64,000 nt of DNA from a virus (taxonomy: Duplodnaviria; Caudoviricetes), in IMG/VR virus record IMGVR_UViG_3300005573_000088, positions 5,237-69,236 of that record, one strand, 5' to 3'. Every line of letters begins with the position of its first letter. Position 1 is the stretch's first letter. The notes beneath the pieces are model-generated. The model was given only the letters and a program-made list of their open reading frames with translations. It made no database searches and was not told the DNA's origin. Made by a program: the position numbers and the translations under genes. This document shows positions 44,912-61,315 of this stretch, one piece after another.

Positions 44912-45153
44912 AATACACCTCCTATTTTTAATTTTGTTGCTTCCTTGATATATTCTACTTTTTCTTTTATAGTCATATTTTCCAATTCATTCCATAATCG
45001 CAAGTAGAAATGCCCATATAATTTGCTATTAATATCTCTACATTTTCCGTGAATAAATCCCACAGGAATAGAATGATTTATGCAATATCTATGTAACTCA
45101 CTATAATCTCTCGATATAATATGATATCTATCGTTAATAAGCACTTTTTTCAT
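44908..45153 (-). CDS. Hypothetical protein
   Basis: 81-aa ORF coupled to neighbours. Confidence 0.45.
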   Translation of the reverse strand: MKKVLINDRYHIISRDYSELHRYCINHSIPVGFIHGKCRDINSKLYGHFYLRLWNELENMTIKEKVEYIKEATKLKIGGVL

Positions 45154-46325
45154 TTTCTTGCCAAAAATCTCATCGGCATAACTACGCAGATGTAGTTTTT
45201 CCTTCCAACTGGCCTTACTATTACGGCATCAATCGACCCGTTTAGTTCGAATATTATATTTTCTTCATCTATATTTTTTAATATATCTATTATGTATTTG
45301 AAATTGAATGCAGTCTCTATATTCTGACCTTCGGATTTTATTTCTATTTCAACATCTCCACTTCCTATCCCTTGACTTACAGCAGAAAGTTTAAGGCCTG
45401 TCTTACCGAATGAATATTTTATTGCACCAGACTTGTCTGCTGCGAAAAGAGACATCTGTTTTGTGGCAGAAAGTAAACTCTGTCTATTCACTTCAATATG
45501 TATCTGGTTTTTTTTAGGTATAACCTGCTCATAGTTCGGGAATGTGCCATCTATAAGTCTTGAGACAATTGTTATATCATTTAATTGAAAAGCTATTTGA
45601 TTTTCATTTATGCTGAATTTAATTGTCTTACCTTTAACAGGCTCAATAAGTGAGATTATTTTTATAACCTCATTTATTGTCTTTGTAGGAACAATTCCTT
45701 TGGAAATTATATTGGTTTCTTTTGTTTCTGAAATAGCATTGTTAAAAATATATGCAAGTCTTCTACCATCAGTTGCAACCATCTTTAATTGTTTTTCTTC
45801 TATAATAAAGTAAACGCCATTTAGACTGTATCTTGTTTCTTCAGTTGAAACTGCAAATATAGTTTTCTTTATCATTTCGCTCATCAGTTCCATATCTATT
45901 GTAAATGCACCTTTCTCAGAAAATTCTGGCAGTGCAGGATAATCTTCAACAGATGTTCCCATAAGTACAAAATGTGATTTTCCTGACTTTATATCAACGT
46001 GTGATTCTTTATCAACTTTTATCTCTATTTTGTCATCTTTACTTAATTCTCCTATCAAACTACCAAAACGTTTTGCTGGTATTGTACATCCACCACCTTC
46101 TATTATTTTTGCATCAATATAGCATTTTAAGCCTATCTCAAGGTCCGTAGACACCATTTTAATTTTACCAGCAGATCTTGAGCCGGCTTTTGTTTCCGTT
46201 TCAATAAGAAAATTACCCAGTATGGGTAGTGTTGCTTTTGATGAAACTGCTGTTTCTATAATCCTTATACCTTTAAGAAGATTTTCTTTTTCGCATACTA
46301 TATGCATTTTTTCCTCCAGTATCAA
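45150..46325 (-). CDS. dnaN: DNA polymerase III beta sliding clamp
   Basis: TLPILGNFL, STDLE, YSLNGV, VATDGRRL, SRLIDGTFPNYEQVIP, AFN.KY..D, VVMPM. Confidence 0.96.
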   Translation of the reverse strand: MILEEKMHIVCEKENLLKGIRIIETAVSSKATLPILGNFLIETETKAGSRSAGKIKMVSTDLEIGLKCYIDAKIIEGGGCTIPAKRFGSLIGELSKDDKIEIKVDKESHVDIKSGKSHFVLMGTSVEDYPALPEFSEKGAFTIDMELMSEMIKKTIFAVSTEETRYSLNGVYFIIEEKQLKMVATDGRRLAYIFNNAISETKETNIISKGIVPTKTINEVIKIISLIEPVKGKTIKFSINENQIAFQLNDITIVSRLIDGTFPNYEQVIPKKNQIHIEVNRQSLLSATKQMSLFAADKSGAIKYSFGKTGLKLSAVSQGIGSGDVEIEIKSEGQNIETAFNFKYIIDILKNIDEENIIFELNGSIDAVIVRPVGRKNYICVVMPMRFLARK

Positions 46326-47116
46326 AAAAAATTAGCCCTATCCTTTTTAATTTCTGGTATTTTTACATCTTTATTTTCAAGTAATAGGCTTTTTGCCTTT
46401 TCAATAAGTTCTTGTTCATATATTTGTCCACATATATCTATAACATCACAGTACCTGCATATCCACTGCTCTGATGCTAGTGGTTTTGGTGGTATAACGT
46501 GTTCTGCTAATGCTTTTTTTAATACCTGTACTCTTGGTCGTAGAAAGTCTTCTATAGCATTTATTTCCCATACAGGAGCTTTGATTTTTCTACACTCTTT
46601 CATAGATAAATACTGCACTTCAAGAACTTTTATATCATATTCTGGATAAACTAGCCATCTATATCCATTTAACTGTTGGATATGATGTGGAAAAGGCGAG
46701 TCAAATATAGGTGGTTTTTCGCAAGTTTTATAATCTCTTATCAACATAAATTTCGGCTTCAGTAGATCTGGCTGACCACTTATTTTTTCTCCATCAATCT
46801 CTTTCCAAAACCGTTTTTCACAAATGCCATCGAAATTACCCTTTTCTACAATAGCATGGGCAATCTTGCCTCTAAATGACCAATACATATGTTCAATGTT
46901 GCCATAGAAATCATAGTTTTTTTCTAAATAAACTTTACGTGGACATGTCAGTAAAGACGTAATACTTATCCCTTCCCTCTCTTCAAGATAGCTTTTAAGA
47001 ATTTCCCTTACCAGTGTTTCAGAAAATGGGCATGGATTGATAAGATACTTGCTACATTTATAACATTTATAAAAACTTACTTTTCCTCTATATTGACAAT
47101 CAATTCCTACAATCAT
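46322..47116 (-). CDS. Cas4-like PD-(D/E)xK exonuclease
   Basis: TCPRK, GQPDL, RDYKT, QQLNGY, CRYC...C (Fe-S cysteines). Confidence 0.82.
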   Translation of the reverse strand: MIVGIDCQYRGKVSFYKCYKCSKYLINPCPFSETLVREILKSYLEEREGISITSLLTCPRKVYLEKNYDFYGNIEHMYWSFRGKIAHAIVEKGNFDGICEKRFWKEIDGEKISGQPDLLKPKFMLIRDYKTCEKPPIFDSPFPHHIQQLNGYRWLVYPEYDIKVLEVQYLSMKECRKIKAPVWEINAIEDFLRPRVQVLKKALAEHVIPPKPLASEQWICRYCDVIDICGQIYEQELIEKAKSLLLENKDVKIPEIKKDRANFF

Positions 47117-47125
47117 ATAATTGCT

Positions 47126-49416: not shown

Positions 49417-49998
49417 TCATATTGAAGTCCTTGTTTTTTGATAGTAAGGACAAACAAGTTTATATATCTTTTCAGTAGATATAACATCTTCAATATTATG
49501 TTTCATTATATGTTTTAATGCTTTTTCGTGTCCCAAACTTGCCTGAAACCATATTTTGGGAGAGAGTTTATGCGCTTTAGCGGGAATACTGAAGAAATCA
49601 CAAGCAACTTCTAATTTATTAGAATGTAATTTTAATCTATTCTTGACAATTTGCCAACAATCTGTATGCAGGACTTCTTTATATAGAGGAAAGTCCAGTC
49701 CATATAGAATAGCACGTGTTCGCAAGAATGGGATGTCAAATTTTTTGCCATAGTACGTTACTATCATATTGAACTTTCTTAGGTCGTAACAGCACTGTTT
49801 TATCAATCTCCTGTCAAAATTTCCATTTTTCATATCTTCTGGTGTAATTAATCCACTATAAATTCTTTGTCCGCCATTAAGTTTTTCTTCGTCTGCAACT
49901 TTGATGGCATAGGAAAAAACAAAACCATATGTTGCCTTTAGATTGCTTGTTTCAATGTCAAAAAATCCAATGTTATGAAGTTTAGGAATTGTTACCAT
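49417..49998 (-). CDS. RNase H-like/DEDD 3'-5' exonuclease
   Basis: FFDIETS, TYYGKKFDIPFL, HTDCW, HNIEDV. Confidence 0.8.
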   Translation of the reverse strand: MVTIPKLHNIGFFDIETSNLKATYGFVFSYAIKVADEEKLNGGQRIYSGLITPEDMKNGNFDRRLIKQCCYDLRKFNMIVTYYGKKFDIPFLRTRAILYGLDFPLYKEVLHTDCWQIVKNRLKLHSNKLEVACDFFSIPAKAHKLSPKIWFQASLGHEKALKHIMKHNIEDVISTEKIYKLVCPYYQKTRTSI

Positions 49999-50261
49999 TA
50001 TTTCAATCCCCATTTCTTTTTAAGTTTTTCTACTGCCTCATGTGTTCCATAGTAAGTTCTACCATATGGCATTTCCAGTTTTTCTAAATTGTTTCTCTGT
50101 TTTTCTTTTTCCAGCAGGCGTCTCACTTGTCGTTGTTTAGCCTCCCCAGAAAACTCTAATACATTAACAATTTCTTTTACGGTAAAAATTTCATCTTTTC
50201 TTCTTTCTAAAAAACTTTTAACAAGAAACTGTATTGGAATTGATAAATTTTCTATTTTCAT
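49998..50261 (-). CDS. Winged-helix-like protein
   Basis: FTVKEIVNVL...RQVRRLLE pattern. Confidence 0.45.
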   Translation of the reverse strand: MKIENLSIPIQFLVKSFLERRKDEIFTVKEIVNVLEFSGEAKQRQVRRLLEKEKQRNNLEKLEMPYGRTYYGTHEAVEKLKKKWGLK

Positions 50262-50458
50262 TTTTCCTCCTTTAAAGAAAATTTAATACATCCATCTATA
50301 TTTGCTTTCCAGTTTTTTCGTGGATATAGTATACATCTGCTATAAACACCTTTTATAAAGTTTTGACACTGTTTACATTTGTAATTAGTGTTACGTCCGA
50401 CGATAATAACCAATCGTCCGTCTTTGTCTTTCTCGTGTCTTAATTCTTCGTTCCACAT
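50258..50458 (-). CDS. Small Cys-containing protein
   Basis: CKQC...C...C. Confidence 0.45.
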   Translation of the reverse strand: MWNEELRHEKDKDGRLVIIVGRNTNYKCKQCQNFIKGVYSRCILYPRKNWKANIDGCIKFSLKEEK

Positions 50459-50465
50459 ATTTATT

Positions 50466-50494
50466 ATTATAACATATTTATTTTATTTTGTCAA
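50466..50494 (-). promoter_or_regulatory. Sigma70 consensus promoter (leftward)
   Basis: TTGACA-17-TATAAT with extended TG. Confidence 0.85.
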
Positions 50495-50577
50495 GGGGTA
50501 GTAAAAAATTTCCTGAGGAATACATTGTGGTTGCAGATGTTAAATAATGGACATTGAAAAATATTTTTTTCTACCTC

Positions 50578-50606
50578 TTGACAAACAAAAAAAAATAGTG
50601 TATAAT
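50578..50606 (+). promoter_or_regulatory. Sigma70 consensus promoter (rightward, divergent)
   Basis: TTGACA (50578-50583)-17 nt-TATAAT (50601-50606). Confidence 0.85.
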
Positions 50607-50654
50607 TATTCTAAAATAGATCTTTCTTTTTTATATTCTATTTCCTATACAATG

Positions 50655-51211
50655 AATTACGACTGTGATTTGCGATATGTGGAACAGGGGTAGACTTAAT
50701 CAGTTGATATGCTTATCGTAGTATTGTGCAACTGGCTGGGATTAAACTTCCCAGTGCTAACACAAGATAAGTTAAGGGTCGGAGTATGAAATACTACTCT
50801 GTATTGGCTTTGAAAGCCAGAAGGTTTTTGTGTTTCCCGAAGAACAAAAACACTGGGAACTATTCCTGAAAGTGACATATAATATCATAAAGTCCTTACG
50901 TTAAGAATACATAAGACGTAAATAGATATGATATTATATAAAAAGACTATGACTGTTATCTAAACCCTTAGGAAATAGAAGTTTTACTATTTTTGTAACT
51001 TACTAATGTTATTAAATTATTTAGTTTTCCTGGGGAAAAACACTGCGGTCGCAGATATAATATAATTTAAAAAAAATATACGCAGTGGGAAAAGCGAAAG
51101 AAGTTCTAGTAAAGGAACTAGATAAGTGTTAGTTGGCGATTTTGGCGATTAGTTGGCGATTTAACGCTTAGTATTGCTAACTTAGAGTCACACGTAAAGG
51201 TTGGTGTAATT
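50655..51211 (+). ncRNA. Candidate large structured non-coding RNA (~560 nt)
   Basis: No credible ORF; downstream of a perfect promoter; nested 5'/3' closing helices plus at least eight internal hairpins, including a perfect 13-bp stem. Confidence 0.6.
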
Positions 51212-51407
51212 ACTTTCCTTTAATTTTATGATGAGCAAGATAACTTACTAAAATTGTCCTATCTAATGTTTTTTTAGGTTTTACCCACTCAAATAATGAC
51301 TCTAATATAGAATCAACTGCCATATCCATACTTGAAATAAAATTTTTACTACATCTAAAACCACAGTCCTTGACTTTTTTCTTTATACTTTTTTTAACAA
51401 TATACAT
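51210..51407 (-). CDS. Bacterial-type histone-fold-like protein
   Basis: YIVKKSIKKKVKDCGFRCSKNFISSMDMAVDSIL...KKTL resembles the LIV.SKVK......M..S..F...L...V..L.......RKT pattern of single-fold bacterial histones. Confidence 0.5.
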   Translation of the reverse strand: MYIVKKSIKKKVKDCGFRCSKNFISSMDMAVDSILESLFEWVKPKKTLDRTILVSYLAHHKIKGK

Positions 51408-51471
51408 TTTTTCCTTCTTTTTTTTATTGCTTTACAAATTTTTTTTAGCAACTTGTCATTACTTTCGTTCA

Positions 51472-51675
51472 TTATTTTTCTGACTGACTGCAACATTTTT
51501 CCTCCTTTTTAATTGGTATCGGTATAATTTTTTTGTTATCTACATTCAAAATATCTCCTAAGTTTACATTTATACCACTTGTCATCAATACAACTTTTGA
51601 CCTCTTTTCACCTGTCTTAATTACTTTTGCTACTAACGTCTCATCATACAATTTAATATTTACTAACATAGACAC
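51472..51675 (-). CDS. Hypothetical protein
   Basis: 67-aa ORF with GGAGGTG SD. Confidence 0.5.
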   Translation of the reverse strand: MSMLVNIKLYDETLVAKVIKTGEKRSKVVLMTSGINVNLGDILNVDNKKIIPIPIKKEEKCCSQSEK

Positions 51676-51678
51676 CTC

Positions 51679-52731
51679 CTATTTTTTCATTTTTTTAAAA
51701 TATTTCAACCCAAATTCTGTTATTGCCCTACCTCTTGACAAATATTTTATGATACCAAGCGACACTAACTCTGGTTCATATATTTTTGTCAATGTTTGCT
51801 CGTCTATTCCTACCATAGATGCTAATGGTTTTAATCCTATGCACCCATTCTGACTTTCTACTATCACCTCTATAATTTTTCTTCCAACTTTATCTATTCC
51901 CAACTCATCTATGTCAAGAAGGTCAAATACTTGCATTAAAACTTGATGTGTAACTTTTGTTATGTTCCTAGATACAATAAAATTTTTCAATACTCTAATT
52001 AGATTATTTGCCTTCCTTGGGATCAGTGAAGATCTCTGCGCTATTTCATTCGCTAATTCATCTGGTAAATTAAGTTCAATTTTTTTACTTGTTTGCATCA
52101 CTATACTAATAATATTTTCAATTGAATACGGATCAAGATTTAGCCTTAAATGAATCCTATCAAGCATAGGTTTTGCTATTTTCCCAATTTCTCCTGCAGA
52201 TGTACCTATTAATGTAAATGGTTTTACTGTTATATCAAAATTTAATGTTCCGTAAGTACTTGGAAAATGTAATACTGTACCTGGTGACTCCATAGGAACA
52301 TATAGCAACTCTGCAAGACTTTTCTTTAATGCATGTATTTCATCTATAAACACTATTGGAAACTGCTCTTTTTCAACTTCCTTAAAGATATTATAGATAT
52401 CTATAGGTTTTTCTATTGATCCAGCTGTAATTGTAACTATAGCCCTCTTTGCCTCACTAGCTACTAGCCATGCGAGCGTTGTTTTTCCTTGCCCTGGAAG
52501 TCCTGCAAGCAGTATATGGTCTATTTGCCTATTTTGTTTAATTGCTGCCCTGACTGTGTCCTGTAATATAGTTTTTGTTCTCGTTTGTCCCTTAAACTCA
52601 TCAAAATTAGCAGGCATCAACTCAGGCTTGACAATCTTTTTTAATTTACTAGTATGCTTACTGAATGCTTCGCCTATCGTTAGAGAATCTATTATTTTAC
52701 TCAGTGAATTTTGCATTGGGATTTCCTCCAT
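51679..52731 (-). CDS. ruvB: RuvB-like Holliday junction branch-migration ATPase
   Basis: [46 protein letters not shown]....LSRGR.IT. Confidence 0.88.
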
Positions 52732-53018
52732 ATATCAAAAAACTTTTCCCTATTTATACTTAAATGTGTATAAATTTGTGTTGTGTTCAATGACTCATGT
52801 CCTAATAGATCCTTTACCATTAGTATATCTGCCCCATTGTTAACTAACTTTGTTGCAAATGAATGCCTTAACATGTGTGGTGAAATAGACTTTCCTATGG
52901 ATTTTAATGCATATTTCCTAAGAATTAGATTTATAGCCATCCTTGACAATTCAAATAATTTACCATGATTTTCTCTACTGTAGAACTTTCGCACCCTTAG
53001 TGTTTGGCAATACATCAA
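52701..53018 (-). pseudogene. C-terminal fragment of a XerC/D-like tyrosine recombinase
   Basis: [13 protein letters not shown]...GAD...[18 protein letters not shown]; lacks the N-terminal domain and first catalytic Arg. Confidence 0.8.
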
Positions 53019-53844: not shown

Positions 53845-54180
53845 TCAACAGGCGCTTTCTACTAACACTTTTATTGTTTTGGGCACTTCAATCTCTTTTT
53901 CTTGCACTTCGTAGTTCTTGCAATCAACTTTAATTTTAATTGATGGAAATTGCCTATTGGAAAATTTGTAAAACTCTCTCAAGCAAGCCAACTTTTGTCT
54001 TATAGAAGATGGGTTTATGCCACTATTGAATAGATAGTTTATATACTTTTTAACAGCACTTAGCATAATCTTTCTATTTATAGACAGAAATTGCCTTAAT
54101 GTAGTTAAGTAACTACTTATTGTATTCTCCGAGCAATTTTCCATCCTTTTAGATTTAATGAAACTCTTAATTTTGCTCAT
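53845..54180 (-). pseudogene. N-terminal (SAM-like) fragment of a tyrosine recombinase
   Basis: SENTISSYLTTLRQF...SSIRQKLACLREFYKF; ends before the catalytic domain. Confidence 0.7.
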
Positions 54181-60623: not shown

Positions 60624-60684
60624 TTTTTTCCTCCTTTCCTGGGGAATCTACTTAATTCCCAGATTTACGATTTTATGATTTGAG

Positions 60685-60860
60685 TTATCCACAAAGTTAC
60701 TAACAGTCACTGTTATAATGTATCCTAAATGTAACAACTTTTTTTTATTTTTTTCATATTTTTTTAATTTTTTATTCTTTTTTATTTTTTTTTTAATTAT
60801 TTTCTTTCATTTTTTTTAATTATTTCTTTCATTTTTTTATTTATTTTATTATCCATTTAC
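60685..60860. other. Perfect DnaA box next to a very AT-rich T-tract region (possible origin)
   Basis: TTATCCACA at 60685-60693; T-run region with a tandem ttttttaattatt(t)tctttcat repeat at about 60789-60832. Confidence 0.35.
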
Positions 60861-60890
60861 TATTTGTTTACATAAACGGATTAAAAAAAA

Positions 60891-61315
60891 TGATACGGGT
60901 TTCTGTCCCTTTCTTTTTAAATTTTTTAACTTTTTAAACTTTTTATATGACTTTTTCTTTTTCTTCTACAACCACTTCTTTTGGTCTAACTCCAAAGAAA
61001 AAGAGCTTACAGCTGTCGTTGTCGACGATAACTCCGTCAACGTTAATAAATTTCCTTACATGATACGAAAAGTTATTAACAAAGGAAGCTGGATTTTCTT
61101 TAAAGTTTGATGGGATCTTGCCGTTGTAATATGGCAGTATCTCACTAAGATCCACCTGGATATCTTGTGTGCCAAGATCCTGACATGCTTTTAAGATGAA
61201 GCAGGCCAAATCTTGGTATCTGATAGCCGACTTTCTGCGATTGTGCCGTAGCAACTCTTGTTTTTCCTTTTCTGATATAAAATTCATTTTCAATCACCTT
61301 CAGAAACCCGTATCA
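60891..61315. repeat. Perfect 15-bp inverted repeats flanking one gene
   Basis: tgatacgggtttctg (60891-60905) and cagaaacccgtatca (61301-61315). Confidence 0.85.
60943..61287 (-). CDS. Hypothetical first early gene (114 aa)
   Basis: MNFISEKEKQELLRHNRRK...; AGGTGA SD; downstream of a strong promoter. Confidence 0.65.
   Translation of the reverse strand: MNFISEKEKQELLRHNRRKSAIRYQDLACFILKACQDLGTQDIQVDLSEILPYYNGKIPSNFKENPASFVNNFSYHVRKFINVDGVIVDNDSCKLFFFGVRPKEVVVEEKEKVI

Follow-up and report, generated by a model that had tools for sequence, protein, structure and literature searches.

The described systems that come closest to the locus analysed here are of different kinds: winged-helix proteins which bind DNA, large non-coding RNAs (ncRNAs) found in phages, and origins of replication with a promoter-made transcript. 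The locus is a gap of 751 nt without open reading frames (ORFs), at positions 50459-51209 of a 64-kb stretch of DNA from an uncultured hot-spring phage (the window), which comprises bases 5237-69236 of the 69,236-bp IMG/VR virus record IMGVR_UViG_3300005573_000088. In the case of the Fic enzymes CccR of Yersinia pseudotuberculosis (PMC9755527) and SoFic of Shewanella oneidensis (bioRxiv 10.64898/2026.07.09.737422), a winged-helix tail binds DNA in a sequence-specific manner, and both proteins have been shown to bind their own promoters (PMC9755527; bioRxiv 10.64898/2026.07.09.737422). The large RNAs ROOL, GOLLD and OLE (Rfam) share with the gap the size class, the phage setting and a promoter-driven, ORF-free sequence; unlike them, the gap gives no covariance-model match at E <= 10 and has neither a conserved family nor a strand-specific fold signal. 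Both the origin of lactococcal Ceduovirus (c2-type) phages with PE1-T and ColE1 RNA II, which is ~550 nt long (PMC5043065), resemble the gap in that a promoter gives rise to non-coding RNA a few hundred nt long and without a ribosome-binding site (PMC7150918; PMC5043065), and the c2-type origin is, like the gap, an ORF-free phage region adjoining early promoters (PMC7150918). Nevertheless, the gap has no sequence similarity to either, and its promoters are divergent instead of tandem.

Close to its right-hand end the gap carries three perfect units of the 8-mer TTGGCGAT, an arrangement which, in the genomes of Bacteria and Archaea, lies directly behind genes for SoFic-like and Schlafen-like proteins with a winged-helix tail. 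It is proposed here, tentatively and at clearly less than even confidence, that the gap is an early non-coding control region and transcription unit whose functional core would be an orphan array where SoFic/Schlafen-type winged-helix proteins of the host dock.

The triple repeat and its cellular counterparts

An earlier note on this DNA, made from its letters alone, had pointed to three ttggcgat repeats, and these are indeed present at 51133, 51142 and 51153; three of the four TTGGCGAT sites of the window lie within 51133-51161. Many low-GC metagenome contigs carry TTGGCGAT arrays in non-coding DNA. A loose three-unit pattern was matched by at least 120 metagenome contigs (L207-L326), many of the matches being coding tandem repeats, while at least 19 stand at the stop codon of a gene with a winged helix-turn-helix tail. 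With a stricter pattern, 62 species-level genomes were obtained (L327-L388; GTDB, one genome per species), which belong to many phyla of Bacteria (including Nitrospirota, Planctomycetota, Ignavibacteria, Desantisbacteria, Stahlbacteria, Actinomycetota, Chloroflexota and one Elusimicrobiota metagenome-assembled genome, MAG) and of Archaea (including Methanosarcinaceae, Methanophagales, Altiarchaeota and Aenigmatarchaeota). In 45 of the 62, a same-strand gene lies upstream whose stop codon is either at most 12 nt from the start of the array or inside it, and the genes before those 45 arrays all end in a winged helix of the form ...SDEgalKEikkL...GKGRslhYiL.

The spacing of the units correlates with the type of protein encoded upstream. 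Upstream of the period-12 arrays (TTGGCGATTAGG) stand genes for proteins of ~350 amino acids (aa), in which, where scanned, a Fic domain was found along with a match to the PADLOC SoFic model (1e-57 to 1e-60). With period 11 or 9+11 the proteins are longer, ~470 aa, and those scanned combine either AlbA_2 (Schlafen) or DUF4062 with HATPase_c_4, one array of this group standing behind a sigma54-type AAA+ protein with a helix-turn-helix. The first repeat unit of a period-11 array even includes the end of the gene, with its last codons and the stop (..V-G-D-TAG). Because of the adjacency, of the correlation between spacing and protein type, and of the DNA binding by CccR and SoFic, the cellular arrays may be regarded as docking sites for the winged-helix tail of the gene's own product. 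CccR and SoFic have a DNA-binding tail of the same kind as the array-adjoining Fic proteins; their published binding, however, is to their own promoter, whereas the arrays described here are located behind the stop codon, and TTGGCGAT is absent from the promoter regions of 36 array-linked genes. The cellular array regions have no Rfam match. A literature search for the repeat word returned primers only, no published binding site with the TTGGCGAT sequence was found as far as searched, and no paper was found that describes the gene-then-array layout behind SoFic-type Fic and Schlafen/AlbA_2-HATPase_c_4 genes. In addition, a second set of short, locus-specific direct repeats is present 40-100 nt downstream of some arrays (L239, L280, L330, L343, L347), namely AACCCGACA three times in L239, AAGGGCTCA-like units in L330 and L343, and AAAGGGGCA in L347, which suggests composite binding regions.

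The phage array has the 8-mer, the unit count, the 9+11 spacing and the orientation to incoming transcription of the arrays behind SoFic/Schlafen-type genes. Its architecture is identical to that of L262, L283/L343, L330, L347 and L374, and a single base separates it from the array that follows the gene for a 484-aa winged-helix protein in an Elusimicrobiota genome (L392), such matches being present in 5 of the 401 Elusimicrobiota genomes sampled. The TAG linker is common to some cellular members, others having TAC or TAT. The phage array is oriented with respect to the + promoter of the gap as the cellular arrays are with respect to their genes, an agreement which alone is a coin-flip. Its three tandem units lie within the 9-12 nt spacing of the class. 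Unlike 45 of the 62 genomic arrays, it is not found within ~12 nt of the stop codon of a GKGRxxxYxL winged-helix gene, but behind 520 nt of non-coding DNA headed by an early promoter. A profile of the winged-helix tail had no match in the six frames of the window, a nucleotide profile of winged-helix gene ends had none in the DNA preceding the array, and the whole 69-kb record lacks Fic and COG2865-like genes. For these reasons the phage array is an orphan copy and not a full member of the docking-type class. The neighbouring small ORF p65 was considered as a winged-helix partner and rejected, its sequence being unlike the tail and without a profile match. In the literature, no account was found of a phage that carries an orphan copy of an array class linked to defence-type genes.

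Such an orphan could be a relic. If the gap were a decayed + strand gene or captured host DNA, for example the 3' end of a winged-helix gene together with its array, this would explain why a promoter is present but no gene, why purine and GC skew have the + sense sign, as in a strand that once was coding, and why the array is located at the 3' end, as behind cellular genes. We give this explanation little credence: neither the protein nor the nucleotide profiles of winged-helix gene ends had a match in front of the array, the units are intact while all else would have decayed, the promoter is still perfect, and the region is essentially unchanged in copies from at least four other samples. In fact, three perfect units between flanks unrelated to the cellular loci argue for selection on the array itself.

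A probable transcription unit within the gap

The earlier note had called a TTGACA-17-TATAAT promoter on the + strand, and the site at 50578-50606 is a 12/12 match. The window contains four such 12/12 sites, compared with the ~0.2 estimated from base composition. The extended -35 context of the + promoter (a T-tract, ACCTC and TTGACAAA) recurs at promoters in Elusimicrobiota genomes, and the ACCTCTTGACAAA motif had 46 matches in 201 genomes, against 12 for the reversed control. The + promoter is thus very likely real. Back to back with it stands a perfect - strand promoter (50494-50466), the two forming an 81% inverted repeat of 47 nt; this second promoter would be the start of the downstream - strand unit, with p66, p87, the RNase H-like exonuclease and the replication genes. 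A further 12/12 sigma70-type site, at 47093-47121 (+), lies inside and antisense to the PDDEXK nuclease gene (46322-47116, - strand), and may be either a second antisense promoter or a chance site.

No open frame beyond 48-60 aa exists between 50459 and 51209, and gene callers left the same 751-nt gap on four independent assemblies. The statement that some 600 nt without a credible ORF follow the + promoter therefore holds, all frames being interrupted. A hidden protein gene was also discarded, on account of the stops in all frames, the missing ribosome-binding site and an ORF of only 13 aa at 50652. Moreover, a G>C and A>=T skew of + sense sign, with a GC skew of up to +0.31, is confined to 50500-51200, both flanks having the opposite sign; this switch is as expected of a segment persistently transcribed from, or having the sense of, the + strand. 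Promoter context, absent ORFs and skew together make a + strand non-coding transcription unit in the gap likely.

The mechanism which is tentatively favoured can be outlined as follows. Host RNA polymerase would fire both divergent promoters early, the - promoter starting the replication-gene unit and the + promoter reading ~520 nt of hairpin-rich, ORF-free sequence and then the triple TTGGCGAT array. The array would thus be located at the 3' end of the + unit, and its copies would also multiply with replication of the phage DNA. It would act as a row of docking sites for the winged-helix tail of host proteins, the three perfect units being kept under selection so that these proteins bind phage nucleic acid, which could be the phage DNA in its many copies or else the early + transcript, where the array runs in the sense orientation, as it does in cellular mRNAs. 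As a consequence, a defence-type enzyme might be titrated or decoyed away from its normal tether or target or, alternatively, a protein roadblock might set where the convergent + and - transcripts end. The hairpins upstream would be local elements (terminators, RNA stabilisers or DNA palindromes) and not domains of one large RNA.

Several points weigh against this proposal. The docking role of the cellular arrays is itself an inference, and the word TTGGCGAT does not occur in the 36 promoter regions mentioned above, whereas it is to their own promoters that CccR and SoFic bind. For a decoy that acts by titration, three sites is a small number, and an array lying 520 nt from the promoter is unexpected if array RNA were the only product. 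An origin would account just as well for three features of the gap: its place in a replication module, its AT-rich DNA and its repeats at helical spacing. Furthermore, the pattern was matched by only two other contigs out of 2.9 million viral ones, both of them coding or giant tandem repeats, so that no other phage with such an array in a non-coding setting provides an independent viral replicate.

A simpler account takes the gap as a plain boundary between two - strand operons, in which hairpins terminate the upstream early operon, the + antisense RNA damps that operon by convergent transcription, and the array is incidental or a captured scrap. The gap does separate a - strand operon which ends at 51210 from one which starts at the perfect - promoter at 50494; the GC-rich CACTGCG/CGCAGTG stem is followed by U5 on the - strand only; and the + transcript, unless stopped, would run antisense into p65, p67 and the RuvB-like gene. 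Nevertheless, 750 nt is long for a terminator-promoter spacer, a strict scan found no canonical - strand terminator and did not call that stem (51041-51087), and the perfect array is left unexplained: three perfect units of a motif conserved across phyla, with flanks unlike any source locus, would hardly persist without selection. This account is therefore considered unlikely, though not negligible. The features of the gap and its surroundings are collected in Table 1.

Table 1. Positions of the features in and around the ORF-free gap (numbering of the window)
Feature	Position	Strand	Remarks
Perfect sigma70-type promoter	50466-50494	-	12/12 with TG extension; one arm of the 47-nt inverted repeat
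~40-nt direct repeat, copy A	50509-50548	+	TTTCCTGRGGAA..ACAYTG.GG..GCAGAT; located exactly in the space that separates the divergent promoters; detected as repeat families D1 and D3 and by motif search
Perfect sigma70-type promoter	50578-50606	+	TTGACA-17-TATAAT, 12/12; reads into the ORF-free stretch, against the surrounding genes
Putative non-coding transcript	50613-51230	+	start placed from the -10 box; no ORF, no ribosome-binding site; + sense skew
Cluster of short local hairpins	50693-50867	.	minimum free energy (MFE) helices 50701/50729, 50735/50755, 50781/50800, 50805/50819, 50824/50851, 50855/50867; local z -3.1 (+), -2.1 (-)
~40-nt direct repeat, weaker copy B	50833-50870	+	same module as copy A
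13-bp perfect AT-only palindrome	50877-50939	.	encloses 7-bp stem TTACGTT/GACGTAA; strongest local z, -4.5 and -3.8 on the two strands
AT-rich, easily melted stretch	50923-51022	.	rank 8 of all 100-bp windows, nearest-neighbour stability scan
~40-nt direct repeat, copy C	51026-51066	+	same module as copy A
GC-rich stem CACTGCG/CGCAGTG, 7 bp	51041-51087	-	U5 follows on the - strand only; candidate terminator of the upstream - strand operon
Orphan docking-type array	51133-51161	+	TTGGCGAT-T-TTGGCGAT-TAG-TTGGCGAT; units at 51133, 51142, 51153; spacing 9 + 11
Putative transcript end, uncertain	~51195-51230	+	weak hairpin plus AATTTTAT
p67 and p65	right of gap	-	small ORFs
RuvB-like AAA+ protein	51679-52731	-	right of gap; clamp loader in PHROGs, RuvB by Pfam and homologues
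p66, p87, RNase H-like (YprB/PF13482) exonuclease, methyltransferase, HU-like protein, PDDEXK nuclease, beta clamp, DnaB	left of gap		

Folding of the gap and the search for relatives

The earlier note had read the stretch as a multi-domain RNA in the class of ROOL, OLE and GOLLD. All the stems it quoted are there, each string at its coordinate, including the perfect 13-bp palindrome (50877/50927). The nested pairing of the two ends was borne out only in part, as the strings exist but the stems are absent from the MFE structure at 37 C and appear only at 55-65 C. In fact, the long-range fold changes with the folding temperature, while about ten local hairpins persist. Compared with dinucleotide shuffles, the 599-nt fold has z = -3.9 on the + strand (-3.2 in a re-run) and -4.05 on the - strand, and 21 windows of 600 nt elsewhere in the genome have a mean z of -0.85 (sd ~0.95, minimum -2.7). 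The stretch thus folds somewhat below its shuffles and the genome background; the excess is, however, the same on both strands, and is for this reason attributed to DNA palindromes as much as to RNA. In 150-nt windows, the excess is located at 50450-50599, where the promoter inverted repeat lies, and at 50700-50999, dominated by the 13-bp palindrome, the 3' half being at background except for a mild dip to z ~ -2 at 51100-51249; a + strand bias is seen only in parts of 50550-51000.

Searches for known RNAs were without result. By cmscan of 49500-52500 on both strands at E <= 10, no Rfam family matched the element, the only output being two chance-level matches, RsaB and MIR6024, outside or at its edge. 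ARAGORN found no tRNA or tmRNA, which excluded such an identity. The stem said to enclose the three repeats as an RNA domain did not stand up: its z is -1.5, a value equalled by 7.8% of shuffles, and the mean flank-pairing z over the 62 cellular arrays is -0.01, so that an enclosing stem is not a feature of the class. The supposed domain appears better explained as the protein docking array known from cellular genomes. An argument from thermophily against AU-rich stems was dropped, as the host lineage looks like Elusimicrobiota.

Relatives of the element would have allowed covariation to be assessed. The other copies (L002, L204-L206) differ from it by 0-1 bases, with one single-nucleotide polymorphism at 51003, and are too alike to inform on covariation. 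In megablast and blastn searches, 50,697 phage records matched only over 45 nt of the promoter, in Lactococcus 949-type phages. Of the relatives reached through the RuvB-like protein, the nearest (57% and 41% identity; L003-L005) have only integrase and RuvB in common with this phage and no similar gap, while 80 viral exonuclease loci (37-53% identity) showed no synteny and no blastn or nhmmer match. No diverged homologue of the element was found in phage GenBank records, in the viral, metagenome and genome contigs fetched, or in the 401 Elusimicrobiota genomes, and when viral contigs were scanned for two repeat units, all matches were chance or coding ones. Only two short pieces of the element, the promoter and the repeats, were matched elsewhere.

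In this context, a free-standing structured ncRNA of ~200-600 nt, private to the phage lineage and possibly restricted to the 5' half (50613-51000), is judged quite improbable. It is favoured by a strong promoter without an ORF, by the + sense skew and by the fold, whose z lies between -3.2 and -3.9 while the background averages -0.85, and the + strand z is below that of the - strand in every 150-nt window of 50550-51000 (for instance -1.6 compared with +1.8 at 50600-50749). On the other hand, the z of the whole region is equal on both strands, the strongest signals come from palindromes with perfect Watson-Crick pairing, the long-range helices do not persist when the folding temperature is changed, and neither an Rfam match nor a diverged homologue came out of the searches just described. 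A reading of the stretch as an RNA of the ROOL/OLE/GOLLD type is therefore not supported. This is a caution for the search of ncRNAs in phages, since a perfect promoter and many hairpins in an ORF-free gap do not by themselves amount to a large folded RNA.

Replication module, probable host and implications

The record has direct terminal repeats. Its + strand holds the late genes up to ~30 kb, and from ~62 kb down to 30 kb all genes are on the - strand, with the gap inside the replication/recombination part of this arm. Contigs almost identical to it come from metagenome runs of hot springs and from three other ENA/JGI assemblies; two hot-spring DNA runs contain the stretch, and no RNA run is listed as containing it. 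The beta sliding clamp (45150-46325), with 50-57% identity to clamps of Elusimicrobiota/Endomicrobiia MAGs, indicates Elusimicrobiota as the likely host phylum, and the host is thus probably an Elusimicrobiota bacterium. For a phage otherwise without close relatives, this clamp is a strong hint.

To the right of the gap, a XerC/D-like integrase is apparently split: its SAM-like N-terminal piece lies at 53845-54180 and its catalytic C-terminal piece at 52701-53018, with a RadC gene and small ORFs between them; in the relatives L003-L005 an intact integrase of 248-263 aa lies directly upstream of the RuvB-like gene. A 2-bp GG indel between assemblies falls at 52994-52995, within the C-terminal piece. 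The SRR5248875 contig (L002) has a 12-nt in-frame insertion in the RuvB-like gene with respect to window position 52658, a small population-level variation in a phage which is otherwise clonal.

The location of the gap raises the question of a replication origin activated or primed by transcription, a group to which the primary origins of T7 and T4 also belong, in which the + promoter would open or prime AT-rich DNA and the TTGGCGAT repeats, 9-11 bp apart, would be iterons for an initiator. The gap lies inside a module with a RuvB-like protein, an RNase H-like exonuclease, a beta clamp and DnaB; at the level of sequence, it is an ORF-free region with a promoter for a non-coding transcript and, together with the strength of that promoter and the missing ribosome-binding site, this is the layout of the Ceduovirus origin (PMC7150918). 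In addition, a G-rich transcript, with the skew given above, would favour R-loops, and stretches of the gap element hold ranks 8 and 10 among the most easily melted 100-bp stretches. The TTGGCGAT class is nevertheless tied to Fic/Schlafen winged-helix genes and not to initiators, the phage encodes no such winged-helix protein, and no initiator gene was identified. Moreover, compared with the c2-type origin and ColE1 RNA II, to which the likeness is one of sequence layout, the phage has a better candidate in terms of melting and DnaA box at 60.7 kb. An origin in the gap is therefore considered doubtful; if it were real, a c2- or ColE1-like transcription-dependent origin would be present in a phage of a poorly studied phylum.

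That other candidate, 60650-60950, is AT-rich and non-coding, contains 26-nt tandem repeats (~4 copies, 60744-60852) and lies just downstream of the first early gene. Both the most easily melted 100 bp of the window (rank 1) and its only perfect DnaA box (TTATCCACA, 60685) fall within 60685-60852, and at the level of sequence the region appears to be a better origin candidate than the gap element. A clustering of DnaA boxes in the gap element was considered and rejected. As regards the ~40-nt direct repeats of the gap, a TTCC-N3-GGAA palindrome is contained in each of the three copies, one further TTTCCTGGGGAA is present at 60635 in the 5' leader of a - strand gene, and the modules look like operator sites for a regulator. 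The possibility that the gap element belongs to a repeat family spread within the phage was discarded.

The orphan docking array, put forward above as the tentative core of the gap, may also be given a more specific role. The phage would carry a gene-less mimic of the docking array by which winged-helix defence enzymes of the SoFic/Schlafen type are tethered or regulated in its host. Through early expression or through replication of the phage DNA, the mimic would draw these enzymes onto phage nucleic acid and thereby disarm or sense them. Stated in this narrow form the idea is a long shot, although a model for it exists: pseudo-ToxI of phage phiTE, reported by Blower and colleagues in 2012, is said to be an RNA-repeat mimic of a type III antitoxin. 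It is, like the array, a gene-less short tandem repeat borne by a phage, and its relatives in cells stand beside a toxic defence enzyme. The differences are, however, considerable, as ToxI repeats are 36 nt long, precede the toxin gene and work in the form of processed RNA, whereas the phage array has units of 9-12 nt, corresponds to cellular arrays located downstream of their genes, and would probably consist of DNA sites. If the mimic were real, the phage would use nucleic acid as a decoy for defence proteins of a class in which genes are followed by arrays, a layout for which no paper was found.

If the docking-array interpretation is true, the phage described here holds the first viral copy of a repeat class otherwise found beside SoFic-like and Schlafen-like genes across Bacteria and Archaea. 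In this case the phage array would offer a direct and cheap test of array function, that is, of winged-helix binding to DNA or RNA, and it would suggest a new phage counter-defence route or, alternatively, a way in which the host senses the phage.

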